A DNA stretch of 64,000 nt from the NCBI GenBank assembly GCA_902485095.1, contig CABTJC010000011.1, positions 197,564-261,563 on the forward strand, given 5' to 3'. Each line of letters starts with the position of its first letter. Position 1 is the stretch's first letter. Source of the DNA: an uncultured Atopobium sp. (lineage in GTDB: Bacteria > Actinomycetota > Coriobacteriia > Coriobacteriales > Atopobiaceae). The notes below the pieces were generated by a model, which saw only the letters and a list, made by a program, of their open reading frames with translations, did no database searches and was not told the DNA's origin. This document shows positions 26,871 through 61,464 of this stretch, piece after piece. Both the position numbers and the translations under genes were made by a program.

Positions 26871-27332
26871 ATGATTTTCTCGTCAATTAAAAATTTATCT
26901 GAGAATGACTTTGGTCAGAAATATATGGCCTGTGCTGCGGAGTTTCTAGCAACCCACAATCTGGATGAGCTGCCTTTGGGCAAAACAGAAATTGATGGAG
27001 ATAACGTTTTTGTGAACGTCATGGAGTTTGAGCCAGCTCTTCCTGGCGAGAAGGACTATGAGGCTCATAAGATTTACGCTGATATTCATGTGGTTATTTC
27101 TGGCTCCGAAAGCATCGCTGTTGCCCCTCTTGAGCAGTGTGTTCTTAAGGGTGAATTTAATTTTGATGCTGATTTTGGTGCTTACACCAATCCTGGAGAA
27201 GAGACATGGGTTACCTTGCACGCTGGTGATTTTCTAGTGACACCTCCATCTGATGCTCACAAACCAGGCTGTACGCTGGAGAAATCTGGCTCAAAGCTCA
27301 AAAAGGCCGTGATGAAGGTTCGCATTAAATAG
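26871..27332 (+). CDS. YhcH/YjgK/YiaL (DUF386) family protein
   Basis: 153 aa matching the small beta-sandwich family whose E. coli member yhcH is the last gene of nanATEK-yhcH. Confidence 0.7.
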   Translation: MIFSSIKNLSENDFGQKYMACAAEFLATHNLDELPLGKTEIDGDNVFVNVMEFEPALPGEKDYEAHKIYADIHVVISGSESIAVAPLEQCVLKGEFNFDADFGAYTNPGEETWVTLHAGDFLVTPPSDAHKPGCTLEKSGSKLKKAVMKVRIK

Positions 27333-34830: not shown

Positions 34831-35056
34831 AACAGCAGACGAGAAGATCTTGGCACTCGTGAATCCAGAATACATGAAGCGTATTCCATTCTTTGTTCGT
34901 GGTCACGCAACAGGTAAGTCTTGTGAGTATATTGCTCGGGAGTATCCAGAGCTTTACGCTGCATTTGAGGATGAACCTAGTGCTCAACAAGTTGAAGAGA
35001 TGTCAAAGATTATCAACGAGCTCTTTGAGCAAAGGATGAAGAAGCACAATCTCTAA
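34823..35056 (+). CDS. Small hypothetical protein (77 aa), translationally coupled to uvrC
   Basis: ATG at 34823 preceded by AAGGGGAGGAA inside the uvrC 3' end (8-nt overlap); charged helical protein (MSKTADEKILALVNPEYMKRIPFFVRGHATGKSCEY...); no recognisable family. Confidence 0.5.
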   Translation: MSKTADEKILALVNPEYMKRIPFFVRGHATGKSCEYIAREYPELYAAFEDEPSAQQVEEMSKIINELFEQRMKKHNL

Positions 35057-35262: not shown

Positions 35263-35913
35263 ATGATGCAGCGTAGAAAAAGGTTTATAAAAGGTCTGTC
35301 ATTATTGGTAGTTCTTGTTATTTGTGGCTTACTGATTAACAACTGGTTTTTTAAGCTGAATACTATGAGACTGCCAGAGTTAAAAAAGCAGGCAGCTCAG
35401 TATGTTGTGCAACAATATGAGAATAAGAAAAATGGTCTTAAGTCTGATTTTGGGTCCGCAGAAAATATTGATTTAGAGACCGCTACTATCTCTGGGCCAT
35501 TTTTAGGAGTCAGTCAAGCTAACCTACTTATGTTGAATGTAGATTTATATTGGGTAATAAGCTCTCAAGAAACGGTTGTTGGTACTGTTGAGCAAGATTT
35601 GGGGCTATTCGCCATTGGGTCTTATTTTGGAACTCCAAAAATGTGGATTCAAACAAGGAACGCTGGGCTGTTACAAGAAATGCATAATAGAAATTATAGA
35701 TGTCTAGTTAGAAGTTTTTGTGGCTTAGGGTTAAGTGGATGGCCGCCACCGTATCTAGCTGATGGCTATTTAGGACGTTATAGCCCAGCAGATGGAAATT
35801 TTGACATTGAAAAAAATGACGAACAAGTATCAGAGATAATCGAATCTCATTTAGGGGAAGAACATCTAGATTTTATGGCGAACCCTGAGCGCGTTGTAGA
35901 TTTAGCTAAGTAA
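35263..35913 (+). CDS. Hypothetical membrane-anchored protein (216 aa) in an AT-rich segment
   Basis: N-terminal RRKRF followed by a TM helix (GLSLLVVLVICGLLINNWFF), then a ~180-aa extracytoplasmic domain; ~38% GC versus ~48-50% in flanks; no recognisable family. Confidence 0.6.
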   Translation: MMQRRKRFIKGLSLLVVLVICGLLINNWFFKLNTMRLPELKKQAAQYVVQQYENKKNGLKSDFGSAENIDLETATISGPFLGVSQANLLMLNVDLYWVISSQETVVGTVEQDLGLFAIGSYFGTPKMWIQTRNAGLLQEMHNRNYRCLVRSFCGLGLSGWPPPYLADGYLGRYSPADGNFDIEKNDEQVSEIIESHLGEEHLDFMANPERVVDLAK

Positions 35914-35981: not shown

Positions 35982-36275
35982 ACAACATATCCGTAATTTC
36001 TAAAGGTAAACGGTAGCAAATCATCGGTAAACGGTAGTTGACAATGATTACTACTTATGTAGTTAGTTAAATATTTTATATATTTGATAAGGTAAAATAA
36101 TAATAAAGCCCGCTATCTGCGGGCCTTCTTAGCTGCTATTAAGATTTATATGTAGTAAATAATACAACAAAACACGTTTTCATATTTTGAGCAGCCAATG
36201 GGCGATATTTTTGTACCGTTGGGCGAACTGTGTTCAGAAGAAATATCTTTTCTTCATATAGTTATGTAGATGTAA

Positions 36276-36310
36276 GCCACACAAGTGGCATTGGTGCCAC
36301 GTTGTGGCAA
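36276..36310 (+). promoter_or_regulatory. Interlocking GCCAC/GTGGC palindrome array in the 5' leader of the sialic-acid-type ABC operon
   Basis: GCCAC-ACAA-GTGGCA-TTGG-TGCCAC-GTT-GTGGCA forms three overlapping perfect palindromes immediately upstream of RBS GGAGAG (36311-36316) and the ATG at 36336. Confidence 0.4.
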
Positions 36311-36335: not shown

Positions 36336-37937
36336 ATGAGCGAGTTTATTAACCGTCCACTTTCGCGTCGCGGCTTCCTTGGCGGAGCAACTGTAGCAGC
36401 TGGCCTTGGCCTCACCGCTTGCGGTGGCGGACAGCAGAAGGCAGCTGAGGCTCCATCTGGAAAGGAAGGCGGCGGCACAATTACTGCTGGAACCGCTTAT
36501 TCAACACAGAACTATGATCCATCTACTACTTCATCAGCACTTGCCCTTGGTGTTAACTGGCAGGTAGTTGAGGGTCTCTATGGCCTAAACTTCCACGACT
36601 ATTCCACCTTCAATGAGCTTGCTACTGCTGATCCTAAGAAGGTTGACGATTACACCTTTGAGATTACCCTCCGTGACGGCGCAAAGTTCTCTGATGGTAA
36701 TGAAGTTAAGGCAGATGACGTTGTTGAGTCCTTCAACCGTTCCGCTGCTAAGGGTAGCGTTTACGTCCCAATGCTTTCCCCAATTGCTTCCGTAGAGAAG
36801 AAGGATGACAAGACTGTCACCGTTAAGACCACTATTGCTAACTTCTCCCTCCTCAAGGAGCGTCTGTCCATTGTTCGCGTTGTTCCAGCAAGCAGCTCCC
36901 AGGATGAGATGAAGAAGCAGCCAGTTGGTTCTGGTCCATGGCAGTTTGAGTCCATCTCTGACAACACTCTTGACCTTGTTCCTAACAAAAACTACAACGG
37001 CGCAACTCCTGCTAAGGACGAGAAGCTCCACTATGACGTCCTTAAGGATCCAACCGCTCGTCTGACCGCTCAGCAGGATGGAACCACTCTTGCTATGGAA
37101 ATGGTTCCTGCAGACGCTGTAGATCAGCTCAAGGGCGCAGGCTGCACCGTTGACGCTGTTCAGGGCTTTGGTGTCCGCTTTGCAATGTTCAACCTTGGCA
37201 AGGCTCCTTGGGACAACGTTAAGGTTCGCCAGGCATGCCTCTATGCACTTGATACAGACAAGATGCTTGCAAACGCATTCTCTGGTCAAGCTGAGGTTGC
37301 TACCAGCTACCTTCCTTCTTCCTTTGCTAACTATCACAAGGCATCTACTGTCTATGCACACGATGTTGATAAGGCTAAGAAGCTCATTTCTGAGTCTGGC
37401 ATCACTCCTGGTGATGTTGTTCTTCGCACCACCGATAACGAGCAGGTTAAGTCCATGGCAACTCAGGTCAAGAATGATCTTGACGCACTTGGCTTTAATG
37501 TAAGCATCGTTTCCGATACTTCTCCAGCAACCTATGCTGCAATTGACGCAGTTGACGGCTCTTGGGACATCCTGCTTGCCCCTGGCGATCCTTCCTGCTT
37601 CGGTGCAGACGTCGACCTGCTGCTCAACTGGTGGTATGGCGATAACGTCTGGATGACCAAGCGTTGCCCATGGAAGGAGTCCGCTGAGTGGACCAAGCTC
37701 CACGAGCTCATGACCAAGGCTCTTGGCCAGTCTGGTGCTGATCAGCAGTCCACTTGGAACGAGTGCTTCGACATCATCGCTGAGAACGTACCTCTGTACC
37801 CAGTTCTCTTTGCTAAGACCTTCACCGCTTCCTGGAGCGAGAAGCCAAACAGCAACGGCGTTGCTCTCAAGGGCTTCAAGGGCATCGGAACCACCGGCCT
37901 GTCCTTCATTGATGTCAACACAGTTACTGCTAGCTAA
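36336..37937 (+). CDS. ABC transporter substrate-binding lipoprotein, family 5 (candidate sialic-acid SatA/SiaE-like)
   Basis: Tat signal RRGFLGGATVAAGLGLTACGG with lipobox; 533 aa family-5 SBP heading an operon that ends in nanA/nanK/nanE homologues. Confidence 0.85.
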   Translation: MSEFINRPLSRRGFLGGATVAAGLGLTACGGGQQKAAEAPSGKEGGGTITAGTAYSTQNYDPSTTSSALALGVNWQVVEGLYGLNFHDYSTFNELATADPKKVDDYTFEITLRDGAKFSDGNEVKADDVVESFNRSAAKGSVYVPMLSPIASVEKKDDKTVTVKTTIANFSLLKERLSIVRVVPASSSQDEMKKQPVGSGPWQFESISDNTLDLVPNKNYNGATPAKDEKLHYDVLKDPTARLTAQQDGTTLAMEMVPADAVDQLKGAGCTVDAVQGFGVRFAMFNLGKAPWDNVKVRQACLYALDTDKMLANAFSGQAEVATSYLPSSFANYHKASTVYAHDVDKAKKLISESGITPGDVVLRTTDNEQVKSMATQVKNDLDALGFNVSIVSDTSPATYAAIDAVDGSWDILLAPGDPSCFGADVDLLLNWWYGDNVWMTKRCPWKESAEWTKLHELMTKALGQSGADQQSTWNECFDIIAENVPLYPVLFAKTFTASWSEKPNSNGVALKGFKGIGTTGLSFIDVNTVTAS

Positions 37938-38092
37938 TTTGTTGTCGTCACGCGCTTAGCATCTCATAGATTGGGGCCCGAGCGTTTTACTTATAACGCT
38001 CGGGCTCTTGTGCTCAAAATTTAGTCCTGAGGTGCACAAAGTCTCATCAAATTTTATTTGTACGGTTTGTTTTAAAGAGAGAGGGGGAGATA

Positions 38093-39049
38093 GTGAACAA
38101 CCTATTACGTCTTATCGGACGCCGTCTTATTGCGCTGCCGATTATGGCTTTAGGCGTCACCTTTCTCGTATTCTTCCTAATGTCTTTCTCGCATGTTGAT
38201 CCTGCATACAATGCCTTGGGAGAGTCTGCTTCTGAAGAAGCTATCCAGCAGTATCACATTGAGAATGGCCTTGATGACCCATGGCCTGTGAGATATGTAC
38301 GCTATATCGGTGATGTTGCTCATGGAAACTTGGGTACCTACGGCACTTCTCACTATTCAGTTGCTGAAAGAATTTCAAAGGCTCTGCCAGTAACTATGCA
38401 GTTGACCTTTATGGGTCTCTTTATTGGCGCAATAGTTTCGTTTACGTTGGGCGTTATTGCGGCTCTCTATAGAGATCAATGGCCCGATCAAATCATCCGC
38501 GTATTCTCAATTGCCGGTCTTGCAACGCCATCATTCTGGTTGGCAGTTCTTTTGATTCTGGTCTTTGCGTCTACGCTCAAGCTTTTGCCCGCCTCTGGAG
38601 CGCTGCCAGATCCTACGGTAAATCTTGTCGGCTACCTGGCTCGTATGATTATGCCGGCATTTGCACTTGCGGTTCCAATGTCTGGTCAGATGACCCGTAT
38701 TGTTCGTACCGCTATGGTCGAGGAGCTGGATAAGGACTACGTCCGTACTGCTCGCGGTGCTGGTATTCCAGAGAGAATCGTCATTGCAAGAAACGTACTT
38801 CGCAACGCTCTTATTACCCCTGTAACTACACTTGGTCTTAAGATTGGTTACCTCATGGGTGGCGCCGTTGTTATCGAGGTTATTTTTAACCTTCCTGGCA
38901 TGGGTACCGCAATTCTTGAGGGCATCCAGGGTAACGAGGCAATGCTTGTTCAGGGCGTTGTTGTTGTCGTTGCACTGTCCTTCATCATCATCAACATTGT
39001 TGTTGATATGTTGTACATCTTGATTAACCCACGCATTAGGACGGTGTAG
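38093..39049 (+). CDS. ABC transporter permease (DppB-like)
   Basis: GTG start after RBS GAGAGGGGGAGA; 318 aa; six TM segments; permease loop motif YVRTARGAGI. Confidence 0.88.
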   Translation: MNNLLRLIGRRLIALPIMALGVTFLVFFLMSFSHVDPAYNALGESASEEAIQQYHIENGLDDPWPVRYVRYIGDVAHGNLGTYGTSHYSVAERISKALPVTMQLTFMGLFIGAIVSFTLGVIAALYRDQWPDQIIRVFSIAGLATPSFWLAVLLILVFASTLKLLPASGALPDPTVNLVGYLARMIMPAFALAVPMSGQMTRIVRTAMVEELDKDYVRTARGAGIPERIVIARNVLRNALITPVTTLGLKIGYLMGGAVVIEVIFNLPGMGTAILEGIQGNEAMLVQGVVVVVALSFIIINIVVDMLYILINPRIRTV

Positions 39050-39053
39050 TGCG

Positions 39054-41093
39054 ATGGTACAAATTAGAAAAAAACAAGTCGAGAAGCTCGAAGAAGCTGC
39101 TGCAAAGGGTTCAACCTTTGGTGGCTTTAAGAAGATGAAGACAGCTTCCAAGATTGCTCTTGTCATTCTTGTCTTTGTTGTTCTTGCTTCTGTCTTTGCA
39201 AACTTTATTGCTCCACATAACCCACTTGAGATCTTCAACGCTCGTCAGGCTCCAGGTAATGGATTTATTTTTGGTACTGACGATAAGGGCCGCGATATTC
39301 TTTCTCGTATGCTCCATGGTGGTCAGTATTCACTGGTTATTGGTTTTGGTGCTACGGGTATGGCACTTTTGTGTGGCTCAATTATTGGTGCTATTGCCGC
39401 TGTTTCTAGAAAGGCTGTCTCTGAGGTCATCATGCGTGTGCTCGACATCATCATGTCGTTCCCAGGCATTGCACTTGCAGCAGTCTTTGTTTCTATTCTT
39501 GGTAACAGCGTTCCTTCAATCATCTTTGCCATTGGCTTTATGTACACGCCACAGATTGCGCGTATTGTTCGTGCAAACATCGTAAGTGAGTACGGCGAGG
39601 ATTACGTAAGGGCAACCATTGTTTCTGGTGCTCGTGCTCCTTGGATTCTGTGGAAGCATGTTCTTCGTAACTGCATTGCTCCCATCATGGTCTTTACCGT
39701 TACGCTGGTAGCAGACGCAATTATCTTTGAGGCATCTTTGACCTTCATCGGTGCAGGTATTGCAGAGCCAACTCCAACATGGGGTAATATTCTGGCTGAT
39801 GCTCGTGCTGGCGTTCTTGCTGGTCGTTGGTGGCAGGCATTCTTCCCAGGCCTAGCTATTATGATGACCTGCCTGGCACTGAACATCCTCTCCGAGGGTC
39901 TTACTGATGCTATGGCAGCAGCACCTGGAGCTCCTGTTGACACAGAGAACTCTGATTCCAGGCGTGCAGATGACATCCTGGCATCTGATCCAGTTCGTGC
40001 GTACGCAGAGCAGGCAGAGTCTCTTGAGCGCAGACTTAATGCACTCAAAGAGGTTGAGCTGTCCAGAACAGACAGACGCAAGCCAGACTTTGATGTTGCA
40101 CCATTGCTCAGCGTTAAAGATTTGTGCATCAGCTTTGAGTCTCACGGAGACGTCAAGGTTGTTGACCATGTAAGCTTTGATGTCCGTCCTGGTCAGTGCA
40201 TGGCGCTGGTCGGCGAGTCTGGCTGCGGCAAGTCAATTACCACCAAGGTCATCATGGGTCTGACTGATCCAAAGGAAACCATTACTGGCGAGGTTCTCTA
40301 CAAAGACCAAGACCTCCTGAAGCTCTCCAAAGAAGAGCACCGCAAGCTGCTTGGTCACGAGCTTGCAATGGTGTACCAGGATGCTCTGTCTTCGCTGAAC
40401 CCTTCCATGCTTATCTCTTCTCAGATGAAGCAACTTACCAGCAGGGGAGGCACTCGTTCCGCAGAGGAGCTTCTAGAGCTTGTAGGCCTGGATCCAAAGC
40501 GTACGCTTGAGTCTTATCCACATGAGCTTTCTGGTGGTCAGCGTCAGCGTGTTCTGATTGCTATGGCATTAACCCGCGATCCTTCTCTGGTTATTTGCGA
40601 CGAGCCAACAACCGCTCTGGACGTTACTGTTCAGAAGCAGGTCATCAAGCTCTTGAATGACCTCCAGCGTCGTCTTGGCTTCGCAATGATCTTTGTTAGC
40701 CACGACCTTGCACTTGTTGCAGAGGTTGCTTCTGAGATTACCGTTATGTACGCAGGCCAGGTTATTGAGCAGGCAGCTACTACTGAGCTTCTGACCAATC
40801 CTGTTCACGAGTACACCCGCGGTCTTCTCGGCTCTGTTCTTTCCATTGAGGAAGGCGCACAGGATGGTACCAGGCTTCACCAGGTACCAGGTTCTGTTCC
40901 TTCTCCAGAAGACTTCCCAACAGGCGATAGGTTTGCTCCTCGTTCAAGCCACCCAGATTTGGGACTTGAGGTTCACCCTGTTATCAAGGAGATTCCTGGT
41001 AAGCACCATCGTTTCTCCGAGCTGCCTGATGAGTATCTGAAGGAGCATGGTCTTGTGCCTTACCTTGAGCGTTCTCAAAAGGAGGTGAGGTAA
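39054..41093 (+). CDS. Fused ABC permease (DppC-like, N-terminal ~300 aa) and ATP-binding domain (DppD-like)
   Basis: N-terminal polytopic permease, then a linker, then Walker A GESGCGKSIT, signature LSGGQRQR, Walker B VICDEPTTALD, all in one 679-aa ORF. Confidence 0.85.
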   Translation: MVQIRKKQVEKLEEAAAKGSTFGGFKKMKTASKIALVILVFVVLASVFANFIAPHNPLEIFNARQAPGNGFIFGTDDKGRDILSRMLHGGQYSLVIGFGATGMALLCGSIIGAIAAVSRKAVSEVIMRVLDIIMSFPGIALAAVFVSILGNSVPSIIFAIGFMYTPQIARIVRANIVSEYGEDYVRATIVSGARAPWILWKHVLRNCIAPIMVFTVTLVADAIIFEASLTFIGAGIAEPTPTWGNILADARAGVLAGRWWQAFFPGLAIMMTCLALNILSEGLTDAMAAAPGAPVDTENSDSRRADDILASDPVRAYAEQAESLERRLNALKEVELSRTDRRKPDFDVAPLLSVKDLCISFESHGDVKVVDHVSFDVRPGQCMALVGESGCGKSITTKVIMGLTDPKETITGEVLYKDQDLLKLSKEEHRKLLGHELAMVYQDALSSLNPSMLISSQMKQLTSRGGTRSAEELLELVGLDPKRTLESYPHELSGGQRQRVLIAMALTRDPSLVICDEPTTALDVTVQKQVIKLLNDLQRRLGFAMIFVSHDLALVAEVASEITVMYAGQVIEQAATTELLTNPVHEYTRGLLGSVLSIEEGAQDGTRLHQVPGSVPSPEDFPTGDRFAPRSSHPDLGLEVHPVIKEIPGKHHRFSELPDEYLKEHGLVPYLERSQKEVR

Positions 41094-41915
41094 ATGGCTA
41101 CAACAACTGAAGAGCAGCCAATTATCTTCCTCGATGACATTTCGGTTACGTTTAAAACACGTACGGGTTCAATCTTTAAGCCTAATAAGGTTCACGCAGT
41201 ACAGAATGTTTCTCTCAAGCTTATGCCTGGTGAGACCATTGGTATTGTTGGTGAGTCTGGCTGCGGAAAGTCTACTACCGCAAATGTCATGTGTGGCCTT
41301 CAGTCACCAACGTCCGGTCATGTGTACTTCAAGGGAATGGATGTTACCAAGCGTACTCCAGAGCTTAGAAAGCAGATTGGCCGCGTTGTCTCTGTTGTCT
41401 TCCAGGACCCAGCAACTGCTCTTAACCCTCGTATGATTGTTAAAGACCAGCTCATGGATCCACTGCTCGTGCACAAGGTAGGAACAGAAGAGGAGCGAGA
41501 AGCCCGTATTAATGAGCTTGTCGGTTTGGTAGGACTTCCACATTCCGCACTTCGCGCCCTTCCAGGTCAGCTCTCTGGTGGTCAGCGTCAGCGTGTTGCA
41601 ATTGCACGTGCGCTTTCTCTGAACCCATCGGCAATCATTGCTGACGAGCCTACTTCCGCACTGGACGTTTCTGTTCGCGCACAGATCTTGAACCTGCTCA
41701 CCGACCTCAAGTCTGAGCTGGGTCTCTCGATGATTTTTATTTCGCACGATATTCAGACTGTCCGCTATGTTTCTGACCGCATCATTGTTATGAATCACGG
41801 CCAGATTATGGAAGATGGTCCTGCTAAGCAGGTCTTTGAGCATCCAACAGATCCTTACACTAAGACGCTTTTGGGTGCTGCACCATCTTTGCTTCATCCT
41901 AAACTGGGTGAGTAG
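41094..41915 (+). CDS. ABC transporter ATP-binding protein (DppF-like)
   Basis: GESGCGKSTT, LSGGQRQRVAIARAL, IIADEPTSALD; 273 aa. Confidence 0.9.
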   Translation: MATTTEEQPIIFLDDISVTFKTRTGSIFKPNKVHAVQNVSLKLMPGETIGIVGESGCGKSTTANVMCGLQSPTSGHVYFKGMDVTKRTPELRKQIGRVVSVVFQDPATALNPRMIVKDQLMDPLLVHKVGTEEEREARINELVGLVGLPHSALRALPGQLSGGQRQRVAIARALSLNPSAIIADEPTSALDVSVRAQILNLLTDLKSELGLSMIFISHDIQTVRYVSDRIIVMNHGQIMEDGPAKQVFEHPTDPYTKTLLGAAPSLLHPKLGE

Positions 41916-41936
41916 CGCTTACGTTTTTGTTTGACT

Positions 41937-41966
41937 AGAGCGCAGCTTAGGCTGCGCTCTTTTAGC
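41937..41966 (+). terminator. hairpin/terminator between the transporter ATPase and the esterase gene
   Basis: AGAGCGCAGC pairs with GCTGCGCTCT across loop TTAG, followed by TTTTAGC. Confidence 0.5.
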
Positions 41967-41981
41967 TTGTTAGGTGGATCA

Positions 41982-43022
41982 ATGCACCAAGAAACGCTTG
42001 AGCTTGCAGAATTGAAGGCAGCTCATGCTTTGACGCCCTATCCTTCGGATTTTGAGGCGTTTTGGAAGGCACGTATGGAGGAAGCAGATAACGCTCCTCT
42101 CAGCTGGCAGATTGTTCCTTCAACAGAGGTCACATCAACTGCTTCAGCTCACTTTTTTGACCTAACGTTTGTGGGTATTGATGGCGCAGAAGTCTATGCA
42201 AAGTATCTGCGACCACAGACTGCCTTAGATGTACAAACCCCGCTTGTTTTACAGTTTCATGGCTATCCAGGATCTTCTCGCAGTTGGTTTGAGCAGAGCT
42301 CATTTTTGGGCTTGGGCTGCTCGCTGATTGCGCTTGATAATCCTGGGCAGGGTGGCCGTAGTTTGGACGGAAGCTCGTACAAGAGCACTACCGTCTCGGG
42401 TCACTTGGTGCTCGGACTAGATGGACCTGTAGAGGACCTTTACTTTGTTCATTTGTATCAGAATATTCGCTTGCTCTGCAGAATTGTTCGCCAGCTTGAA
42501 GGAATTGATACAAATCGCGTTTTTGTAAACGGCGCGTCACAGGGCGGCGGTATTGGTCTTGCTACCTGCGCACTCAATCAAGACCTTATCAACAGGGCAG
42601 CAATTCTTTATCCCTTCCTCACCGATTTTAGGTGTGTGTGGGAACTTAATGCTGATGAGGTTGCCTACGAGGGCATCCGTTATTATTCCCGCTGGTTTGA
42701 CGCAGATGGTTCTCGCGTTGATGAGGTCTTTGCAAAGCTTGCCTATATTGATTCAGCTAATTTTGCACGCCTGGTTACCTGTCCTGTGCTTTTTGGCACC
42801 GGACTTGATGACCCGGTAGTTCCTCCCGAGGCTCAGTTTGCAGCTTACAATGCCTTGACCTGCCCAAAGAGACATCTTCTTTATCCCGGATACGCGCATG
42901 AAGAGATTGGCGATTTTGACGATAAGATCATTGATTTCTTCTGCTCAGACAAGGGAGAGCAAGCTCTTGAAAAGTTGGACTCGTCATTTCCTGCTCAAGC
43001 AGAAGGCGAGGTGAAAGCATGA
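41982..43022 (+). CDS. CE7-family acetyl esterase (acetylxylan esterase/cephalosporin-C deacetylase-like; candidate sialate O-acetylesterase)
   Basis: Nucleophile elbow GASQGGG, alpha/beta-hydrolase fold. The ATG at 41982 follows RBS AGGTGG and the hairpin; the track start at 41931 would read through the hairpin. Confidence 0.7.
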   Translation: MHQETLELAELKAAHALTPYPSDFEAFWKARMEEADNAPLSWQIVPSTEVTSTASAHFFDLTFVGIDGAEVYAKYLRPQTALDVQTPLVLQFHGYPGSSRSWFEQSSFLGLGCSLIALDNPGQGGRSLDGSSYKSTTVSGHLVLGLDGPVEDLYFVHLYQNIRLLCRIVRQLEGIDTNRVFVNGASQGGGIGLATCALNQDLINRAAILYPFLTDFRCVWELNADEVAYEGIRYYSRWFDADGSRVDEVFAKLAYIDSANFARLVTCPVLFGTGLDDPVVPPEAQFAAYNALTCPKRHLLYPGYAHEEIGDFDDKIIDFFCSDKGEQALEKLDSSFPAQAEGEVKA

Positions 43023-44005
43023 GGGGCTTAACACAAAGGCTTGAAGATGCTCGTTCTTATCGCGGCGCGTGGCTTAGACCATCAAACTTTGAATCATTTT
43101 GGGAGACGTCCGTAGCGTTTGCACAAAATGCGCACGTAGAGAGTGTGGTTGAGCTTCCGTCTGCTACCCAGGCGGCAACGTTTAAGCGCATCACATTCAC
43201 CTCAACTGACCAGACGCAGCTGCGTGCTCGCGTCATTCTTCCAGCAGGTGTGTCGGTGGCAGAACCGCTAGCTGCGACAGAGTTGTCCGCCCCAGCAGAG
43301 CTGTCCGCCTCGGCAAAACTGCCCGCGGTGGTGCTCTTCTCCGATCTTGGTCGGGGAGTGCGTAGCTGGCTGCACCTATTGCGTTTCTCTGCGCTTGGCA
43401 TGCCCGTTGTAGCCCTAGAGGCTCGCCCGTGCGAAGCGCCACTCAAAGACGCTTGGAGGGGAGCGTTGACCGCAGAGGAGCTTGCCCGCGCGCTCATCAA
43501 CCCAGATGACGCCGCATCCTCCACGCTCAAGCAGCTCATCGATGACGCACTGGTAACTGCCTCGGTTGCCTCACGCTTTCTGGGATGCACAACCGTTACC
43601 TGGGGAGAAGGTCTAGGCGGCTCGCAGGCATTGTTTGCGGCTGCGCTTCTGCCCAAGGATGTGAGCGCTACCATGGCGCTGAACCCGCTCTTTGCCGACA
43701 ACGCAACAACCCTGCGCTCGGTTGTCGGGTGCGGAGACACTCCGCAGTCAGATGCAGCTATCGACGCGGTCGGTCTTCTCGACAGCGCGTGCGCGGCCGA
43801 GCTGGTGCGTGTACCTGCGCTTATCGGCACGGCCCTGCTGGACCAGACCGCGCCAACTGAGGGAACGTTTGCGCTGTTCAACCGCCTGAAAGGGCAGAAA
43901 GAGATACGCGTGTATCCCAAGTTTGGGCACGAGCGCATCAATCAATTTGAGAACGAGCAAATCAACTGTCTCTGCGAGGTTATATCAGGACTTTGTCATA
44001 ACTAA
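43019..44005 (+). CDS. Divergent alpha/beta-hydrolase (CE7-like paralogue) with atypical nucleophile motif
   Basis: 328 aa; ~60% GC versus ~50% for neighbours; GGSQA in place of canonical GxSxG; internal tandem ELSAPAELSASAKL repeat; overlaps the upstream gene by 4 nt. Confidence 0.55.
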   Translation: MRGLTQRLEDARSYRGAWLRPSNFESFWETSVAFAQNAHVESVVELPSATQAATFKRITFTSTDQTQLRARVILPAGVSVAEPLAATELSAPAELSASAKLPAVVLFSDLGRGVRSWLHLLRFSALGMPVVALEARPCEAPLKDAWRGALTAEELARALINPDDAASSTLKQLIDDALVTASVASRFLGCTTVTWGEGLGGSQALFAAALLPKDVSATMALNPLFADNATTLRSVVGCGDTPQSDAAIDAVGLLDSACAAELVRVPALIGTALLDQTAPTEGTFALFNRLKGQKEIRVYPKFGHERINQFENEQINCLCEVISGLCHN

Positions 44006-44122
44006 GCGGACTATAATTACGTAGGTTCTTTGAAGTTGCTTTTGATCAATGCTTTGGTCGGCCACTTCAGTACATTGTTGTATGAAACCAGTTGGATTTT
44101 CCAACGTGTGAAAGGATAAAGC

Positions 44123-45046
44123 ATGTCCAGTAACGTACCATTTAGCGGTGTTGTTCCACCAGTTGTAACCCCAGATACCCCAGACCATCAGCTTGATGTT
44201 GTGTCGTTTGAGCGCTCTATTAATCGTCTCATTGAAGCTGGCGTAGACGGCCTGTTCTTCCTTGGCTCTTCTGGCGAGGTTGTTTTTGCAACTGATGAGC
44301 GCCGCGATCAGATTGTGCGCGAGGCTGTCCGCATTGTTGACCACCGCGTTCCGGTCCTTGTGGGCATCATTGATACCGAGACCGAGCGTGTCTTGGAGCA
44401 CGGTCGCCGTGCCCTCGCACTGGGCGCAGATGCTCTTGTAGCAACCGCTCCTTTCTACGCACTTGGTGGCCCAGCTGATGTTGAGGAGCACTTCCGCATC
44501 CTTCACCAGGAGTTGGATGCACCTCTGTTTGCGTATGACATTCCTGTCTGTGTTCATACTAAACTTCCTTGGAAGATGCTTGCTCGTCTGGGTGCAGAGG
44601 GCGTTCTTGCAGGCGTCAAAGACTCTTCTGGCGATGACGTTTCCTTCAGATATCTTGTTCAGGAAAACGAGAAGAACGGTCATCCTCTGACCCTTTTGAC
44701 CGGCCATGAGATTGTTGTTGACGGCGCCCTTCTTTCTGGTGCAGACGGTTCTGTTCCTGGCCTTGCTAATGTTGAGCCAGAGGGCTACGTCCGCATGTGG
44801 AAGGCAGCTCAGGAAGGTAACTGGGCAGAGGTCAAGCGTGAGCAGGACCGACTTAACGAGATTTCCCACATCTTTGATGTCACTTCAGGCGTTCAGGGCT
44901 ATGGTGCTGGCGTTGGCGCATTCAAGTGCGCACTTAACCTCATGGGTATCTTTGATTCTGATCAGATGCCTCGTCCAGTTAAGCCACTTGATGGCCAGAA
45001 CCGTGAGGCAATCAAGCAGGTTCTTGTTGCAAACGGCCTTCTCTAA
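44123..45046 (+). CDS. nanA: DapA-family lyase (N-acetylneuraminate lyase-like)
   Basis: DapA/NanA fold with GSSGE motif (FFLGSSGEVVF); 307 aa; followed by ROK kinase and NanE homologues. Confidence 0.75.
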   Translation: MSSNVPFSGVVPPVVTPDTPDHQLDVVSFERSINRLIEAGVDGLFFLGSSGEVVFATDERRDQIVREAVRIVDHRVPVLVGIIDTETERVLEHGRRALALGADALVATAPFYALGGPADVEEHFRILHQELDAPLFAYDIPVCVHTKLPWKMLARLGAEGVLAGVKDSSGDDVSFRYLVQENEKNGHPLTLLTGHEIVVDGALLSGADGSVPGLANVEPEGYVRMWKAAQEGNWAEVKREQDRLNEISHIFDVTSGVQGYGAGVGAFKCALNLMGIFDSDQMPRPVKPLDGQNREAIKQVLVANGLL

Positions 45047-45061
45047 ACAAGAGGGGACACC

Positions 45062-46051
45062 ATGGACTCTAAGTTTGTTTATCCAACACATGTTTGCGCC
45101 GTTGATATTGGCGGCACAAAAATTGCCTGTGGCATAGTCACTCTTAACGGCACCGACGCTCCAAACGTTCAGTCCGTAAAAAAGGTTCCTACCAATGCAA
45201 AAGAGGGTGGCAAGCAGGTTCTTGCCACCGTTCTGCAGGCAATTAGAGAGGCTCTTGCTCGCGCAGAAGAGCTGGACCTTACCATTTCCGGCGTAGGCAT
45301 TTCTTCTGCTGGTGTTGTTGATCCTCGCACCGGAGACATCACTTACGCAAATGAGCTTATGCCAGGCTGGGGTGGAACCGCTCTTGGCTCTGCAGTTACC
45401 AGCGAGTTTGGCCTTCCGTGCAGCGTTCTCAATGACGTTCACGCCCATGCTCTGGGCGAGGCTCGTCATGGCGCTGGCCACGGCAAAGACAGCGTTCTAA
45501 CCGTAGCGGTTGGCACGGGCATTGGTGGCGCCTTTGTGAACCACGGCATCTTGATGCTGGGTGCTCACGACGAGGCTGGCCACATTGGTCACGTTGCAAC
45601 TCCAGCCGCTGCAGGCGTTGATTGTCCGTGTGGTGGAACTTCTCACCTTGAGCCTGTTTCTGCAGGTCCTGGCATTATTCGCGAGTATGTCCGTCTTGGC
45701 GGCTCCGACACGCTTGAAGACGGCTCTGCTCTTGATGGAGCCGAGATTGACCGCAGAGCTCTTGCTGGCGAGAAGATCGCTCAAGCTGCAGAGGAGCGCT
45801 CGGGCCGCGCGCTTGGTGAGGTTCTGGGCAGCATGTGCAACATGCTTGACCCTTCTGTCATCATTCTGTCTGGCTCCGTTGCAGAGTGCGGAAAGTACTG
45901 GCACGAGGCACTTGAAGCTGCATTTAAGCTGCAGGCAATGCCTCCCGTTCAGGCAACGCCCATTGTGAAGGGCACGCTTGGTGGAGAAGCTCCTCTTATT
46001 GGAGCTGCAGAAAACCTTATTCTACCTGGTTATTTAGAGACACGTCTTTAG
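45062..46051 (+). CDS. nanK: ROK-family sugar kinase (N-acetylmannosamine kinase-like)
   Basis: N-terminal ATP-binding DIGGTKIACG, ROK zinc motif CPCGGTSHLE; 329 aa with no N-terminal HTH, so a kinase rather than a repressor. Confidence 0.78.
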   Translation: MDSKFVYPTHVCAVDIGGTKIACGIVTLNGTDAPNVQSVKKVPTNAKEGGKQVLATVLQAIREALARAEELDLTISGVGISSAGVVDPRTGDITYANELMPGWGGTALGSAVTSEFGLPCSVLNDVHAHALGEARHGAGHGKDSVLTVAVGTGIGGAFVNHGILMLGAHDEAGHIGHVATPAAAGVDCPCGGTSHLEPVSAGPGIIREYVRLGGSDTLEDGSALDGAEIDRRALAGEKIAQAAEERSGRALGEVLGSMCNMLDPSVIILSGSVAECGKYWHEALEAAFKLQAMPPVQATPIVKGTLGGEAPLIGAAENLILPGYLETRL

Positions 46052-46145
46052 GCATAAGCATGTCAGCAGGCATATTGCTTGCTGACTAGGTATGTCGCAA
46101 AGACAGACACCTTTAACGTACGTACATTTTTGTGAGGAGAATACC

Positions 46146-46835
46146 GTGGCATATTCAGAGCTTGTTGAGTCACTTAAAGGAAAACTCATTGTCAGCGTCC
46201 AGGCGTATCCTGGTGAGCCTATGAGGCATCCAGAGACCATGGCTCAGATTGCTCGCGCTTGTGAGCTTGGCGGCGCTGCAGCTATTAGGTGCCAGGGTTT
46301 GTCTGACATCTCTGCCATTAAAGGTAGAGTTGAAATTCCTGTTATTGGCCTCTGGAAAGAGGGTCATGAGGGTGTCTACATTACTCCTACGCTTCGTCAT
46401 GCGCGTGCTTGTATTCACGCTGGCGCAGATGTTGTTGCCCTGGATGCAACAGACCGTCCAAGGCCAGATGGTAGAACCTTTGAAGAGACCGTTGCAGCTC
46501 TGCGCGCAGAGTCTGACGTGCTGATTATGGCTGACTGCATGACTATGGATGACATCCGTCGCGCTGTTGCCGCTGGTTGTGACCTCGTTTCAACTACGCT
46601 CTCTCACAACAAGGCTGCTATTGATACAACGCTTGACGATGGTCCTGACATTGCTCTTCTCAAGCAGGCAACCACTGAATTCCCAGGTATTGCCATTATT
46701 TGCGAGGGTCACGTCCACACACCACAAGACGCAAAAGATGCTCTGGATGCAGGCGCTTGGGCAGTTGTTTCAGGTACAGCCATTACACATCCAACTTCAA
46801 TTACCTCTTGGTTTGCTGCAGCACTTGAGGATTAA
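46146..46835 (+). CDS. nanE: N-acetylmannosamine-6-phosphate 2-epimerase
   Basis: NanE-like KLIVSVQAYPGEPMRHPETMAQIARACELGGAAAIRCQG. GTG at 46146 preceded by GAGGAG; the track start at 46092 is an in-frame extension. Confidence 0.78.
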   Translation: MAYSELVESLKGKLIVSVQAYPGEPMRHPETMAQIARACELGGAAAIRCQGLSDISAIKGRVEIPVIGLWKEGHEGVYITPTLRHARACIHAGADVVALDATDRPRPDGRTFEETVAALRAESDVLIMADCMTMDDIRRAVAAGCDLVSTTLSHNKAAIDTTLDDGPDIALLKQATTEFPGIAIICEGHVHTPQDAKDALDAGAWAVVSGTAITHPTSITSWFAAALED

Positions 46836-46881: not shown

Positions 46882-47799
46882 GTGAAGAAAAACGATCCTA
46901 CATCTTCAGTTATTCCCGACATTGTCATTATTACGGGTATGTCTGGATCGGGTCGTACGCAGGCGCTTCATGTGTTTGAGGACATGGGTTATTTCTGCAT
47001 TGATAACCTGCCACCAGCTCTTATTTTGCAGCTTTCTAACCTTGTGGGCATTAACACAGGTGTTGGCCGTCACTTGGCTGTTACTTGTGATTTGCGCTCG
47101 CAAGGTCTTTTTGATGACATCTCTGAAGCGCTGAGGTCACTTGCAGATCACGAGCTTACCTACAAGATTGTCTACCTGGATTCTTCAGATGAAGTGCTCA
47201 TGCGTCGCTATAGCGAGAACCGCCGTCGTCATCCTTTAGCGCAGGAGGGAGAAAATCTCTTATCTGCAATCTCTAGGGAACGCTCACAGCTTCAAGACAT
47301 AAAAGCGCTGGCAGATGTGGTCTTAGACACCTCGTCCATGCGTACTAATACATTAAAGAGTCGCCTTCGTCGCGCATTTTCAGAGCTTGCTGAACAGCAG
47401 CTCATGGATGTCAGCGTGTTTTCCTTTGGCTTCAAAAATGGTTTGCCTGTTGAGGCTGACCTTATGATTGACGTGCGCTTCCTGCCCAATCCTTACTATG
47501 ATCCAGAGCTCAGGCCACTTACCGGTCTTGATGAGCCAGTAGCTCAGTTTGTCCTTACGCATGGCACTACCAAGAAATTCCTTAAGTCTTGGTTTGAGCT
47601 GCTTGATGTGGTTATGCCTGGCTATGTTCAGGAAGGCAAGAGCTTGCTCTCTATTGCGGTAGGCTGCACGGGCGGCCAGCATAGAAGTGTTGCAATCGCA
47701 CGTGCTACTGCAGAGCATCTTACCAGCCAGGGATATCGCGTAACGCTGTTCCATCGCGATCTTGATGCGGCTCAGAAGAAGTCTCAGCAGGCTGAGTAG
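46882..47799 (+). CDS. rapZ: RNase adapter protein RapZ (YvcJ family P-loop protein)
   Basis: Walker A GMSGSGRTQA and C-terminal GCTGGQHRS motif; 305 aa. Confidence 0.88.
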   Translation: MKKNDPTSSVIPDIVIITGMSGSGRTQALHVFEDMGYFCIDNLPPALILQLSNLVGINTGVGRHLAVTCDLRSQGLFDDISEALRSLADHELTYKIVYLDSSDEVLMRRYSENRRRHPLAQEGENLLSAISRERSQLQDIKALADVVLDTSSMRTNTLKSRLRRAFSELAEQQLMDVSVFSFGFKNGLPVEADLMIDVRFLPNPYYDPELRPLTGLDEPVAQFVLTHGTTKKFLKSWFELLDVVMPGYVQEGKSLLSIAVGCTGGQHRSVAIARATAEHLTSQGYRVTLFHRDLDAAQKKSQQAE

Positions 47800-47812
47800 A
47801 AGTTAGTCTGTC

Positions 47813-48781
47813 ATGTCCTATACAGCCCTGGTAAAAAATGAGCTGGTTAGCGTACCAGAACTTCAGACGGAGTGTGAATTAGCACAGCTTTCTGCGCTTA
47901 TTCGTGTTTCTGGAACGTTGTCGATGCACGGCCCTGGTAAATTTGCCGTTCGCATTGTTACCGAGACTGGCACGGTTGCCCGTACCGTTATTAGTTCTTC
48001 TCGCCGTTTGTTTGATCTGGGTACTTCCGTTGAGTACCGCCGCTCTATCATGCATAAGAAACGCAACTATTTGCTTGAGATTTCTAACCAGGATTCGCTT
48101 GCAGAAGCACTTTCCGCTCTTGGCATTTACATACCGGGAGAAGGCCTGGTAAGCGGCATTCCAAAGAGTGTTATTCGCACCAAGCAGGCGCAGCGTGCTT
48201 TTTTGCGCGGAGCATTTATGGCGGGCGGATTTTTGGCTGATCCCTTAAAAGATTTTCACCTAGAGATTGCTGTCTCGGGTGAAAGATTTGCCTCTGAGCT
48301 GGTAAAACTTATGGGATCCATTGGCGTTAAGGCACGCCTTAATCATCGTAATCGCCATACCAACGCTCTGATGCGTACCAGAGAAATTTATGCCGTCTAC
48401 CTTAAGAGCTCTGACGACATCATCAAGTTTTTGCGAGAGATTGGTGCGCCCACCATGGCGCGCGCTATTGCATTTACGCGTGTGCAAAAGCATTATCGCA
48501 ACAACGTCAACCGAGTTGTCAACGCAGAGATGGCAAATCAAACACGCTCTTCAAATGCAGCGGCAGACCAGTTAGCGCTCATAGAAAAGGCCGAGAAACT
48601 CATTGGACTCAGAGCTCTGCCGCCAGCGGTCAGAGATTTTTGTCTTGCACGAAAAGATAACCCTGAGCTGTCATTATCAGCGTTGGGGGAGTCGTTTGTA
48701 CCACCCGTATCCAAGTCCGCCATGTATCACCGACTGCTTCGTTTGGAAAAAATCGTTCAGGATTTAGAAAAAGATGCATAA
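47813..48781 (+). CDS. whiA: Sporulation/cell-division transcription factor WhiA
   Basis: 322 aa; LAGLIDADG-like N-terminal domain and C-terminal HTH; starts 14 nt after rapZ. Confidence 0.88.
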   Translation: MSYTALVKNELVSVPELQTECELAQLSALIRVSGTLSMHGPGKFAVRIVTETGTVARTVISSSRRLFDLGTSVEYRRSIMHKKRNYLLEISNQDSLAEALSALGIYIPGEGLVSGIPKSVIRTKQAQRAFLRGAFMAGGFLADPLKDFHLEIAVSGERFASELVKLMGSIGVKARLNHRNRHTNALMRTREIYAVYLKSSDDIIKFLREIGAPTMARAIAFTRVQKHYRNNVNRVVNAEMANQTRSSNAAADQLALIEKAEKLIGLRALPPAVRDFCLARKDNPELSLSALGESFVPPVSKSAMYHRLLRLEKIVQDLEKDA

Positions 48782-52788: not shown

Positions 52789-53781
52789 ATGGCACGGTTT
52801 GTTTGGTACGTTACAAAGAGGATTTTGAGCTACATTGTGATGATTTTTGTTGCAACTTCGCTCACATTCTTCCTCGCATCATCATTTATGAACCCACGCT
52901 CCAACTTTGAGCAGCGTACTCCACGTCCTCCACAGGAGTCTATTGAGGAAAACCTGTATAGGACTAATCTGAATGATAAGACTCCAGTTATTGAACGTTA
53001 TCAGGTTTGGGTTACCAATCTATTTACCAAGTTTGATCTTGGTATGACTCCAACAGGCGATAATGTTAACCGTGAGATGAGCTCTAAGTTTATGGCTTCT
53101 ATTGAGCTTATGACTCCAGCAACTATTTTGTCTGTTGTTATTGGCGTTAGCCTGGGCGTTTATACTGCCCAGCGTCAGTATCAGTGGCAGGACCGCTTCT
53201 TAAGTGGTGTTGCTTCGGTTTTGCTGGTTATTCCAACCGTTGTTATGGCAATCTTGATTGTTTTTGCAGCAATCGAGATTAACGCACGTGCCGGTTCCCG
53301 TATTTTCTACGTTACCGATCTTTCCAGTGGAGATACCGGAAACTTCTTCACTTGGCTCATTGACTTCCTCCAGCACATTATTCTTCCAACCATTGTTCTT
53401 ACTATCGTAAGCTCCGTTGGTTACCACCTCTCTCAGCGTACGTACCTGCTTGACGAGATGCACGCAGACTATGTCCGTACTGCTCGCGCAAAGGGACTTA
53501 CTCGTAAGAAGGCAATTCGTAAGCACGCTCTTCGCGTTTCTTTGATTCCAACCGCTGTTTCAGTTGCTTTCTCTCTTGCAGGTATCTTCACAGGTGCTGT
53601 TATGACCGAGAAGGTCTTTGCAATTCACGGTCTTGGTGAATACTTCATTAACTGTATTAACAACAACAATATTCACGGTGCAGTTGCAGTTGCAGCATTC
53701 TCTGGCGCAATGACTCTTGTTGGCGCTCTTCTGGCTGACCTCTTTGCTGCTGCTCTTGATCCACGAATTAAGATGAGCTAA
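52789..53781 (+). CDS. ABC transporter permease (OppB/DppB-like)
   Basis: 330 aa; polytopic; loop motif YVRTARAKGL; RBS GAGGAGAG. Confidence 0.88.
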   Translation: MARFVWYVTKRILSYIVMIFVATSLTFFLASSFMNPRSNFEQRTPRPPQESIEENLYRTNLNDKTPVIERYQVWVTNLFTKFDLGMTPTGDNVNREMSSKFMASIELMTPATILSVVIGVSLGVYTAQRQYQWQDRFLSGVASVLLVIPTVVMAILIVFAAIEINARAGSRIFYVTDLSSGDTGNFFTWLIDFLQHIILPTIVLTIVSSVGYHLSQRTYLLDEMHADYVRTARAKGLTRKKAIRKHALRVSLIPTAVSVAFSLAGIFTGAVMTEKVFAIHGLGEYFINCINNNNIHGAVAVAAFSGAMTLVGALLADLFAAALDPRIKMS

Positions 53782-53791
53782 GGAGGCGGAC

Positions 53792-59064: not shown

Positions 59065-59114
59065 CGTATACTTAGACTATGTGATTTGTTTTTCCTTGCT
59101 GGTAAGGAGTGACT

Positions 59115-61406: not shown

Positions 61407-61464
61407 ATAGTCTTCTCGTCAACTAAACGATTTTCTCGTCAAAAAAGGCAGATATCTGAAATTC

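Follow-up and report, generated by a model that had tools for sequence, protein, structure and literature searches.

A predicted sialic acid uptake and catabolism operon with a paired CE7 esterase module between uvrC and rapZ in the Lancefieldella parvula group

We analysed a 64,000-nucleotide stretch of contig CABTJC010000011.1 from an uncultured Atopobium sp. (the window) and studied nine genes that lie in it between uvrC and rapZ. With a probability of about 0.85, these genes form a chromosomal nan operon for the uptake and catabolism of sialic acid, in a uvrC-nan-rapZ position that is common across Coriobacteriales. They encode a predicted importer of the SatABCD (ST3) type, two proteins of carbohydrate esterase family 7 (CE7), Est1 and Est2, and the predicted catabolic enzymes NanA, NanK and NanE. 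The cluster is of a documented kind: earlier surveys of Actinobacteria cover ST3 nan clusters, those of Lancefieldella among them. The detail that is possibly new is the esterase pair with its serine-less CE7 subfamily. The genes of the locus, with their best domain scores, are listed below.

32773-34830, plus strand: uvrC, with UvrC domains; the left boundary, outside the operon
36336-37937, plus strand: satA, predicted sialic acid binding lipoprotein of the ST3 importer (Pfam SBP_bac_5, 207 bits)
38093-39049, plus strand: satB, permease with the first transmembrane domain (TMD1) (BPD_transp_1, 128 bits, and BPD_transp_1_N)
39054-41093, plus strand: satC, second transmembrane domain (TMD2) fused to a nucleotide-binding domain (NBD) (OppC_N, BPD_transp_1, ABC_tran and oligo_HPY in one open reading frame)
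41094-41915, plus strand: satD, second ATPase (NBD) (ABC_tran, 124 bits)
41982-43022, plus strand: est1, predicted canonical CE7 acetyl esterase (AXE1, 264 bits)
43019-44005, plus strand: est2, CE7-fold paralogue without the nucleophile serine (AXE1, 85 bits, weak)
44123-45046, plus strand: nanA, predicted N-acetylneuraminate lyase of the CgNal type (DHDPS family, 141 bits)
45062-46051, plus strand: nanK, ROK sugar kinase, N-acetylmannosamine (ManNAc) kinase by gene context (ROK, 160 bits, residues 12-316)
46092-46835, plus strand: nanE, ManNAc-6-phosphate 2-epimerase (Pfam NanE, 157 bits)
46882-47799, plus strand: rapZ, with RapZ-like N- and C-terminal domains; the right boundary
26871-27332, plus strand: gene of the YhcH/NanQ family (DUF386, 133 bits)

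The sat, est and nan genes lie on one strand with short spacers. The stretch interposed between uvrC and rapZ measures 12,051 bp, which agrees with the roughly 12 kb given in an initial annotation of this DNA, and the list of open reading frames (ORFs) and the Pfam/NCBIfam profile searches confirmed the gene coordinates and domain calls of that annotation. Gene starts were cross-checked against gene-caller annotations of identical metagenome contigs. The callers start est1 at the ATG at 41982 (346 aa), in an ORF that reaches upstream to a TTG at 41931, and they start nanE at 46146 (229 aa). Downstream of rapZ follow whiA, gap, pgk and tpiA in this order. The gene order from the YhcH gene to whiA is identical in 6/6 metagenome contigs examined, and the exact SatA protein was found in 207 blocks of a public assembly collection. 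RapZ is 96–99% identical to its full-length matches in genomes of Lancefieldella (formerly Atopobium) parvula and 'Atopobium sp.'. Judged by this identity, the host is a member of the L. parvula group (Atopobiaceae, Coriobacteriia, Actinomycetota).

The four sat genes encode a transporter of the ATP-binding cassette (ABC) type. In ST3 systems, earlier called SAT, SiaEFGI or NanBCDF, SatA is an SBP_bac_5 binding protein, SatB is TMD1, SatC is a TMD2-NBD fusion and SatD is an NBD (Severi 2021). The domain maps of the window transporter agree with the ST3 entry in Table 1 of Severi 2021. SatC in particular is a single ORF of 679 aa with OppC_N and BPD_transp_1 at residues 33-286, ABC_tran at 371-520 and oligo_HPY at 571-630. 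Among all solved structures, the best matches of the window SatA were those of Haemophilus ducreyi SatA (5ZA4, 5Z99 and 5YYB; E 2e-99, 337 bits), with 41% identity over 491 aa. The next-best family, an unrelated ABC binding protein, reached only E 3e-27, NikA, DppA and OppA were weaker still, and no solved binding protein other than H. ducreyi SatA scored above 99 bits. In this test the protein thus matched SatA far better than the peptide binders OppA/DppA. The N-terminus of SatA shows a twin-arginine signal (SRRGFLGG; 20.2 bits with TAT_signal_seq, cut-off 16.7) and a lipobox (LTAC), and this combination fits a lipoprotein of a Gram-positive bacterium. SatD is 79–93% identical across the nan loci of other Coriobacteriia.

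These comparisons support the assignment of the transporter as a sialic acid importer of the SAT/ST3 (SatABCD) type. In its family-5 binding protein, the four-gene layout, the fused SatC and the linkage to nanA, nanK and nanE it agrees with the SatABCD, SiaEFGI and NanBCDF systems of H. ducreyi, Corynebacterium glutamicum and Bifidobacterium breve. It differs from them in that its binding protein is a lipoprotein with a Tat signal in a Gram-positive organism. The initial annotation had likened the system to the C. glutamicum importer and to H. ducreyi SatABCD, and both the fused SatC and the SatA match bear this out. Its label 'SAT3', however, was wrong. This is the old name of ST6/SatEFG, an unrelated CUT1-type system with an SBP_bac_1 binding protein and separate permeases (Severi 2021). 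Membership in ST6/SatEFG was rejected because the binding protein of the window belongs to SBP_bac_5 and not to SBP_bac_1.

The loci that we used for comparison carry labels beginning with L. In one of them (L018; CP097092.1, a complete metagenome-assembled genome of L. parvula), satB gave a partial tblastn match and satC gave no match covering at least half of its length. The genes neighbouring satB and satC in this locus are intact, and the gap could reflect frameshifts, pseudogenes or assembly errors.

The lyase was compared with characterised members of its family. The best match of NanA in the PDB was the C. glutamicum lyase CgNal (5C54/5C55; E 7e-71), with 46% identity, and its identity to Escherichia coli NanA is 24%. 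When the enzyme is aligned with CgNal and with NanA and DapA of E. coli, the Schiff-base lysine K166, the catalytic tyrosine Y138, G48, G51 and E52 are invariant, and the GxxGE motif reads GSSGE. Cys143 occupies the position of the DapA-specific Arg138; the residue roles in this alignment follow PMC5380162. CgNal is a biochemically proven lyase of N-acetylneuraminic acid (Neu5Ac) despite a tree position nearer to dihydrodipicolinate synthase (DHDPS), and it has some DHDPS activity (PMC5380162). The window enzyme resembles CgNal in GSSGE, the tyrosine and the Schiff-base lysine, and the sequences of both are closer to DHDPS than to E. coli NanA; CgNal Ser143, Thr199 and Val212 correspond to Cys143, Ile and Ser. 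NanA scored 75.7 bits with TIGR00683 (cut-off 382) and 88.2 bits with NF003164 (cut-off 281), the two nanA equivalog models, and 121.6 bits with the dapA model TIGR00674 (cut-off 206), which is above the nanA scores and below its own cut-off. Since NanA falls below both the dapA and the E. coli-type nanA cut-offs, we file it as a CgNal-type enzyme and not as an E. coli-type equivalog. The test against true DapA thus came out on the side of the lyase: CgNal is the closest match, the DapA arginine is missing and the TIGR00674 score is below the cut-off.

It might be supposed that the transporter is an ordinary importer of peptides, nickel or opines (Opp/Dpp/Nik) and the lyase a true DHDPS, with nanE next to them by coincidence. 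The best named NCBIfam matches of the four transporter genes are indeed nickel, dipeptide and oligopeptide components, the dapA model outscores the nanA models, and the DHDPS activity of CgNal itself points the same way. However, the NCBIfam matches all lie far below the curated cut-offs, the lyase has a cysteine where DapA needs Arg138, and SatA separates H. ducreyi SatA from all other solved binding proteins by 337 bits to at most 99. In addition, the nine genes keep their order across genera, and two further complete systems of the Opp/Dpp kind already occur in the window, together with an additional binding protein of family 5, all of them unlinked to the nan genes. We consider this explanation highly improbable.

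Of the other catabolic enzymes, NanE exceeded the cut-off of NCBIfam NF002231 (261.4 bits, cut-off 189) and is 38% identical to E. coli NanE. NanK is a ROK protein without a helix-turn-helix domain, 30% identical to E. coli NanK, and it scored 100 bits (cut-off 283) and 91 bits (cut-off 450) with the NanK equivalog models. It is also the least conserved product of the cluster, with 43–73% identity across other Coriobacteriia. We assigned it as the ManNAc kinase from its gene context. A gene of the YhcH family, which the initial annotation had noted at 26871-27332, is real and is 36% identical to E. coli NanQ. E. coli NanQ is a Neu5Ac anomerase, and by this similarity the YhcH protein is possibly an accessory Neu5Ac anomerase. 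The gene lies 9 kb upstream as a separate transcription unit, outside the operon, with uvrA, a gene for a tRNA-editing domain, murJ and uvrC in between. It was found at the same place in 5/5 metagenome contigs that reach that far and is cut at the end of the sixth. An anhydro-sialic acid route was rejected for the window, which has neither a GFO_IDH_MocA (NanOx-like) gene nor an SBP_bac_1 transporter.

Between the transporter and the catabolic genes lie est1 and est2. Est1 aligned with 3FCY at E 6e-63, and its GASQGG serine, GLDD aspartate and AHEE histidine coincide with the catalytic triad. Instead of the RGQ signature of CE7 it has PGQ, which was also found in all paired upstream partners examined. 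The start of est2 overlaps the end of est1 by 4 bp (ATGA). The Est1 and Est2 sequences contain no signal peptide. In Est2 the nucleophile position is occupied by glycine, both in the phmmer alignment to 3FCY and in a MAFFT alignment with orthologues from Olsenella, Collinsella and others. The motif reads GEGLGG (G-E-G-[L/F]-G-G in orthologues), and the aspartate and His-Glu-Arg are kept. Of the two CE7-like esterases claimed in the initial annotation, Est1 therefore stands with a complete triad, and Est2 does not stand as an enzyme of the same kind, having glycine for the nucleophile.

An AlphaFold2 model of Est2 (predicted local distance difference test, pLDDT, 91.1; predicted template modelling score, pTM, 0.91) places Gly198 between strand 192-197 and helix 199-210, that is, at the nucleophile elbow. 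In a Foldseek search of the PDB with this model, the top 48 matches were all CE7 (TM-score 0.66–0.74), and on the strength of the model Est2 is predicted to have the CE7 fold. Ser202 ('GGSQA') was considered as a shifted nucleophile and rejected: it is absent from the orthologues of Olsenella, Collinsella and others, and it lies inside helix 199-210. Lancefieldella alleles differ in a segment at about residues 76-102, rich in Ala, Glu, Leu and Ser, which some of them have and others (e.g., L001) lack; its model confidence is low (pLDDT 57–59).

Est2 is not confined to this species. In a first homologue search, the best 120 matches listed were almost identical alleles from L. parvula. When 1.84 billion cluster representatives were searched exhaustively, 242 relatives were found at E ≤ 1e-3. 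When the two window proteins and 60 cluster representatives were aligned, glycine stood at the nucleophile position in 45/62, nearly always directly preceded by glutamate, and canonical GxSQGG/RGQ enzymes appeared mainly among the weaker matches. Thirty-six members of the subfamily, 25–59% identical to the window Est2, share 12 invariant columns, including G196, G198, G200, H304, E305, R306, N308 and E311, with the motifs G-E-G-x-G and H-E-R-x-N-x-x-E. Four distant Est2-type genes (38–41% identical) each directly follow a canonical CE7 gene with G[AG]SQGG, DCPGQG and HEEI, and the junctions overlap or abut (ATGA, TGATG, TAAATG). A metagenome scan gave the same arrangement in every distant locus with enough upstream sequence.

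The pair lies between satD and nanA in 29 Coriobacteriia loci, and five nan loci lack it. In a sister Lancefieldella-like species (L161/L164) the order is likewise uvrC-sat-est1-est2-nan-rapZ; the products there are 34% (est2), 87% (nanA) and 93% (satD) identical to those of the window. Farther away, the pair neighbours a BNR sialidase and an FAD oxidoreductase in L095, and in L093 a DUF386 (YhcH) gene lies directly 3' of it. In this distribution, est1-est2 is a conserved module found mostly in sialic acid loci. We also observed a different recurring locus of the sialic acid type that holds est1-est2, in human-gut metagenome contigs (L168-L176; GC 0.57–0.60). It contains a Sat-like family-5 ABC system (25–39% identical), an FAD_binding_2 oxidoreductase, a NanOx-like GFO_IDH_MocA protein and a BNR sialidase.

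It might be supposed that est2 is a decaying, functionless duplicate of est1. Apart from the missing serine, this is favoured by the highest ratio of non-synonymous to synonymous substitution rates (dN/dS) among the cluster genes proper (0.156 among Lancefieldella strains, against 0.055 for est1 and 0.015–0.03 for the sat and nan genes except satA), by the indel-variable, low-confidence segment and by an identity of just 34% in the sister species where nanA keeps 87%. However, the ORF is intact in all loci examined, and a dN/dS far below 1 indicates purifying selection on a gene that evolves faster than its neighbours within Lancefieldella. The 12 columns invariant over 36 divergent members, the confident predicted fold (pLDDT 91) and the coupling of the est2 start to the stop of the upstream gene in distant taxa also argue against decay, and we regard it as unlikely.

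Tentatively, we propose that Est1 and Est2 are subunits of an undescribed heteromeric CE7 enzyme, a canonical esterase with an obligatorily co-encoded serine-less paralogue; we see this as a possibility somewhat short of even odds. The Est1 subunit would be the Ser-Asp-His esterase, marked by the PGQ and HEEI motifs. Est2, which keeps the Glu-Gly elbow, the aspartate and His-Glu-Arg-x-Asn-x-x-Glu, would gate or select O-acetylated sialic acids for Est1. Alternatively, Est2 might carry out a different chemistry, such as acetyl migration or activation of water by the Glu/His pair. O-acetylation of host sialic acid is currently seen as a barrier to its use by bacteria. If the proposal is true, the pair would be a widespread accessory module of sialic acid loci in Gram-positive gut and oral bacteria, and it would fill a gap by doing in the cytoplasm what the SGNH enzymes of the NanS type do outside. 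The known sialate O-acetylesterases, such as NanS of E. coli, EstA of Bacteroides and SAE of P. vulgatus, are SGNH enzymes with the same proposed role, removal of O-acetyl groups before catabolism. In contrast to Est1 and Est2, which have the alpha/beta-hydrolase fold of CE7 and no signal peptide, they have an unrelated fold and act outside the cytoplasm before uptake.

It is also possible, although less likely than not, that the pair has nothing to do with sialic acid and merely rides in the operon, deacetylating xenobiotics or other small acetylated sugars. The broad specificity of CE7 enzymes as deacetylases of small substrates speaks for this view. We take the Streptococcus pneumoniae protein Axe (SPD_1506) to be a CE7 member. 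The study of this protein describes an intracellular acetyl xylan esterase with a Ser-Asp-His triad that releases acetate from bovine submaxillary mucin, a sialomucin, in vitro, and whose deletion gave no phenotype on sialomucin. The missing phenotype favours an unrelated role, as do the pairs of L089-L091 and the five Coriobacteriia nan loci without the pair. Against it stand the position of the pair between satD and nanA in the 29 loci and its company elsewhere, a BNR sialidase, a NanOx-like oxidoreductase, YhcH or, in the gut-metagenome loci, a Sat-like ABC system. In terms of pathway chemistry, moreover, a 9-O-acetyl group would block the C6 hydroxyl that NanK phosphorylates. Pneumococcal Axe was studied as a single enzyme, whereas the window esterase is always followed by the serine-less paralogue. 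Our literature search returned no paper tying carbohydrate esterase family 7 to sialate O-acetylesterase activity; the study of pneumococcal Axe, with its acetate release from sialomucin, comes closest as a precedent.

Taking the sialic acid operon as the most probable reading, the pathway would run as follows. The Tat-exported lipoprotein SatA would capture free sialic acid outside the cell, and SatB, SatC and SatD would import it at the expense of ATP. In the cytoplasm, Est1, probably together with the translationally coupled, serine-less Est2, would remove O-acetyl groups, either from sialic acid itself or from the 6-O-acetyl-ManNAc that results from its cleavage. The 9-O-acetyl position of sialic acid becomes O6 of ManNAc, the position of phosphorylation by NanK, and this would be a chemical reason for having a cytoplasmic deacetylase. 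NanA would split Neu5Ac into pyruvate and ManNAc, NanK would phosphorylate ManNAc, and NanE would epimerise the product to N-acetylglucosamine-6-phosphate (GlcNAc-6-P). NagA and NagB, encoded elsewhere, would then feed GlcNAc-6-P into glycolysis.

The initial annotation had presented the cluster as an insertion between uvrC and rapZ. To compare this junction, we mapped the window proteins on 80 species-representative loci around rapZ, 64 of which were informative (at least 3 kb upstream of rapZ). The contents upstream of rapZ in these 64 loci were as follows.

34/64 loci: sat genes with nanA, nanK and nanE; est1 is present in 29 of them
7/64 loci: nanA, nanK and nanE only, with the sat genes out of reach or absent
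11/64 loci: nanE without nanA
4/64 loci: uvrC directly abutting rapZ (L023, L032, L041, L068)
8/64 loci: something else

Thus, 52 of the 64 loci, from two families (Atopobiaceae and Coriobacteriaceae), have nan genes upstream of rapZ. The 34 loci with both sat and nan genes comprise all 14 informative Lancefieldella loci and 20 of the 50 other Coriobacteriia loci (Collinsella, Olsenella and relatives), and in these the genes follow one another as in the window. Among Lancefieldella strains, purifying selection acts on every cluster gene (dN/dS 0.00–0.16), and satA has no non-synonymous change. Where loci reach far enough (L055, L161, L164, L167), uvrC lies directly upstream of satA. In several Coriobacteriia (L025, L027-L031, L034, L038, L052, L061), the interval between uvrC and rapZ has nanE only, followed in L025 by a GFO_IDH_MocA oxidoreductase. 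Examples of loci with nanE only are Enorma and Tractidigestivibacter. Either the nan cluster has left a remnant in such an interval or the interval has a distinct two-gene function; as remnants, those in Enorma and others speak for loss and not for gain.

Recent acquisition of a genomic island by this lineage, with insertion between uvrC and rapZ, would explain the 12 kb that separate genes adjacent in four of the loci. Such an origin would also agree with the strong horizontal-transfer signal in actinobacterial NanA-K-E trees (Li & Huang 2022) and with est2, whose GC content at third codon positions (GC3) of 0.60, against about 0.45 for its neighbours, makes it an outlier in the operon. The rest of the evidence does not agree with it. 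The other cluster genes have GC3 values of 0.39–0.53, as compared with 0.42–0.58 in the flanks. Synonymous divergence (dS) among Lancefieldella strains is 0.10–0.32 for the cluster genes and overlaps that of uvrC, rapZ and whiA (0.20–0.27). We found no integrase domain in the scanned window ORFs, no tRNA within 12 kb of the cluster and no direct repeats bracketing it. Neither mobility genes, nor tRNA or att repeats, nor composition, nor patchiness among Lancefieldella marks the cluster as a mobile island. Together with the nan genes at 52 loci in two families, the uvrC-satA junctions and the nanE-only remnants, this makes a recent insertion quite unlikely, and the insertion framing was not borne out. 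The simplest reading of these comparisons is that uvrC-nan-rapZ is an old, order-wide location in Coriobacteriales with lineage-specific losses and remodelling. Homologous replacement between relatives may have occurred at the fixed uvrC-rapZ site.

Several observations weigh against a sialic acid operon, or against a role of the esterases in it. A review names His333 as the sole charge-neutralising residue of H. ducreyi SatA for Neu5Ac, and the likely equivalent position (5Z99 chain index 331, numbering unconfirmed) is Asn in the window SatA. NanK and NanA fall under the NCBIfam equivalog cut-offs, which leaves gene context and one characterised relative as the basis for their specificity. 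No report of growth on, or use of, sialic acid by L. parvula (A. parvulum) came up in the literature search. In L089-L091 the est pair lies near PTS (phosphotransferase system), glmM and glmS genes and not near nan genes. We know of no CE7 enzyme demonstrated to act on free 9-O-acetyl-N-acetylneuraminic acid (Neu5,9Ac2). Finally, the ORFs of the window that were scanned include no nagA, nagB, sialidase or regulator. The data therefore support that free sialic acid is scavenged, and the mucin foraging predicted by the initial annotation was overstated. Since no sialidase was seen nearby, the sialic acid may come from neighbouring sialidase producers.

The missing regulator had been noted before, and the profile searches agree: no ORF from 34.8 to 46.9 kb has a DNA-binding domain. 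In this the cluster differs from almost all Actinomycetia nan clusters, as it has no adjacent NanR of the GntR/FadR type. No regulator lies between uvrC and satA in L055, L161 or L167 either. An unlinked factor might act at the satA leader, where the following elements were found, together with a hairpin inside the cluster.

36005-36016 and 36026-36037: GGTAAACGGTAG, repeated exactly at a spacing of 21 bp, directly ahead of a perfect TTGACA hexamer that lies some 300 nt upstream of satA
36276-36308, plus strand: twin palindromes GCCAC-N3/4-GTGGC, GCCACACAAGTGGC and GCCACGTTGTGGC, found by pattern count
41937-41960, plus strand: strong GC-rich hairpin with a 10-bp stem and a weak T tail, in the satD-est1 spacer; the top-listed terminator-like site of the scan

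The twin palindromes follow a promoter-like site (36233-36262) and closely precede the ribosome-binding site of satA. No other GCCAC-N3-5-GTGGC occurs in the 64 kb, and the number expected is 0.14. Upstream of satA in the sister species, the arms are conserved and the spacers differ. The palindromes are candidates for the operator of an unlinked regulator or for leader hairpins. The repeats of GGTAAACGGTAG, of which one copy stands at the equivalent place in the sister species, are likewise a candidate binding site for an unlinked regulator. The hairpin at 41937-41960 lies upstream of the est1 ATG; it is possibly an attenuator or an mRNA-stability element, and it might uncouple the catabolic genes from the transporter genes in expression. 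Between nanE and rapZ lie 46 bp, for which the scan lists no terminator-like site, and transcription may therefore continue into rapZ. An Rfam scan of 34.7-48.9 kb gave two sub-threshold chance matches only and no known riboswitch or leader.

In Olsenella uli (L049), positions 4377-9415 between nanE and rapZ hold a GFO_IDH_MocA oxidoreductase, a DeoR protein, a PfkB kinase and PTS EIIABC. This DeoR was rejected as a nan regulator because it is part of an adjacent fructose-type DeoR-PfkB-PTS operon. The operon probably explains the 'glpR' reported for Coriobacteriia nan clusters.

Lancefieldella parvula is a common oral and upper-gut species of Coriobacteriia and is linked to dysbiosis in the literature. 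Its genes would equip it to consume free sialic acid, which would make it one more consumer in cross-feeding networks and changes no concept. ST3 transporters are common throughout Actinobacteria, where they probably arose (Severi 2021). In a survey of 7,180 actinobacterial genomes, 52.6% of Coriobacteriales were positive for sialic acid catabolism by species, with 2/2 genomes of Lancefieldella, 98/107 of Collinsella, 14/33 of Olsenella and 0/7 of Enorma (Li & Huang 2022). The cluster shares with the surveyed actinobacterial nan clusters consecutive nanA-nanK-nanE genes and an ST3 transporter (Li & Huang 2022, Severi 2021). According to Li & Huang 2022, Coriobacteriia clusters lack a FadR-type regulator and have 'whiA' among the neighbouring regulators; the fixed position next to rapZ-whiA explains this neighbour. 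The searched text and supplements of Severi 2021 and Li & Huang 2022 contain no mention of a CE7 esterase pair or of the uvrC-rapZ position.

Some further features of the window were observed. Two small ORFs between uvrC and satA (34805-35056 and 35263-35913) gave no family match. The second encodes 216 aa with an N-terminal hydrophobic segment (GC 0.38, GC3 0.31, dN/dS 0.19). It varies among strains (153–223 aa) and is duplicated in L087; the sister species lacks it and has a uvrC-satA gap of about 450 bp. On the other side of the cluster, rapZ is directly followed by whiA (span 46882-48781), and yvcK/glmR, which usually lies between them in Actinomycetota, is absent from the window.

The two further complete ABC systems of the Opp/Dpp type lie at 4068-15102 and 52789-58828, away from the nan genes. 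The extra family-5 binding protein that accompanies them is divergently oriented, and C26, M20 and M42 peptidases adjoin these systems. This suggests a heavy investment in peptide uptake. The span 59109-62223 encodes a GAF-SpoIIE (PP2C) phosphatase and, after it, a STAS-HATPase_c_2 fusion protein, which together form a compact partner-switching module. Three long ORFs, at 501-1925 (minus strand, 474 aa), 2035-3756 (plus strand, 573 aa) and 18435-20519 (minus strand, 694 aa), had no Pfam match at E ≤ 1e-5.

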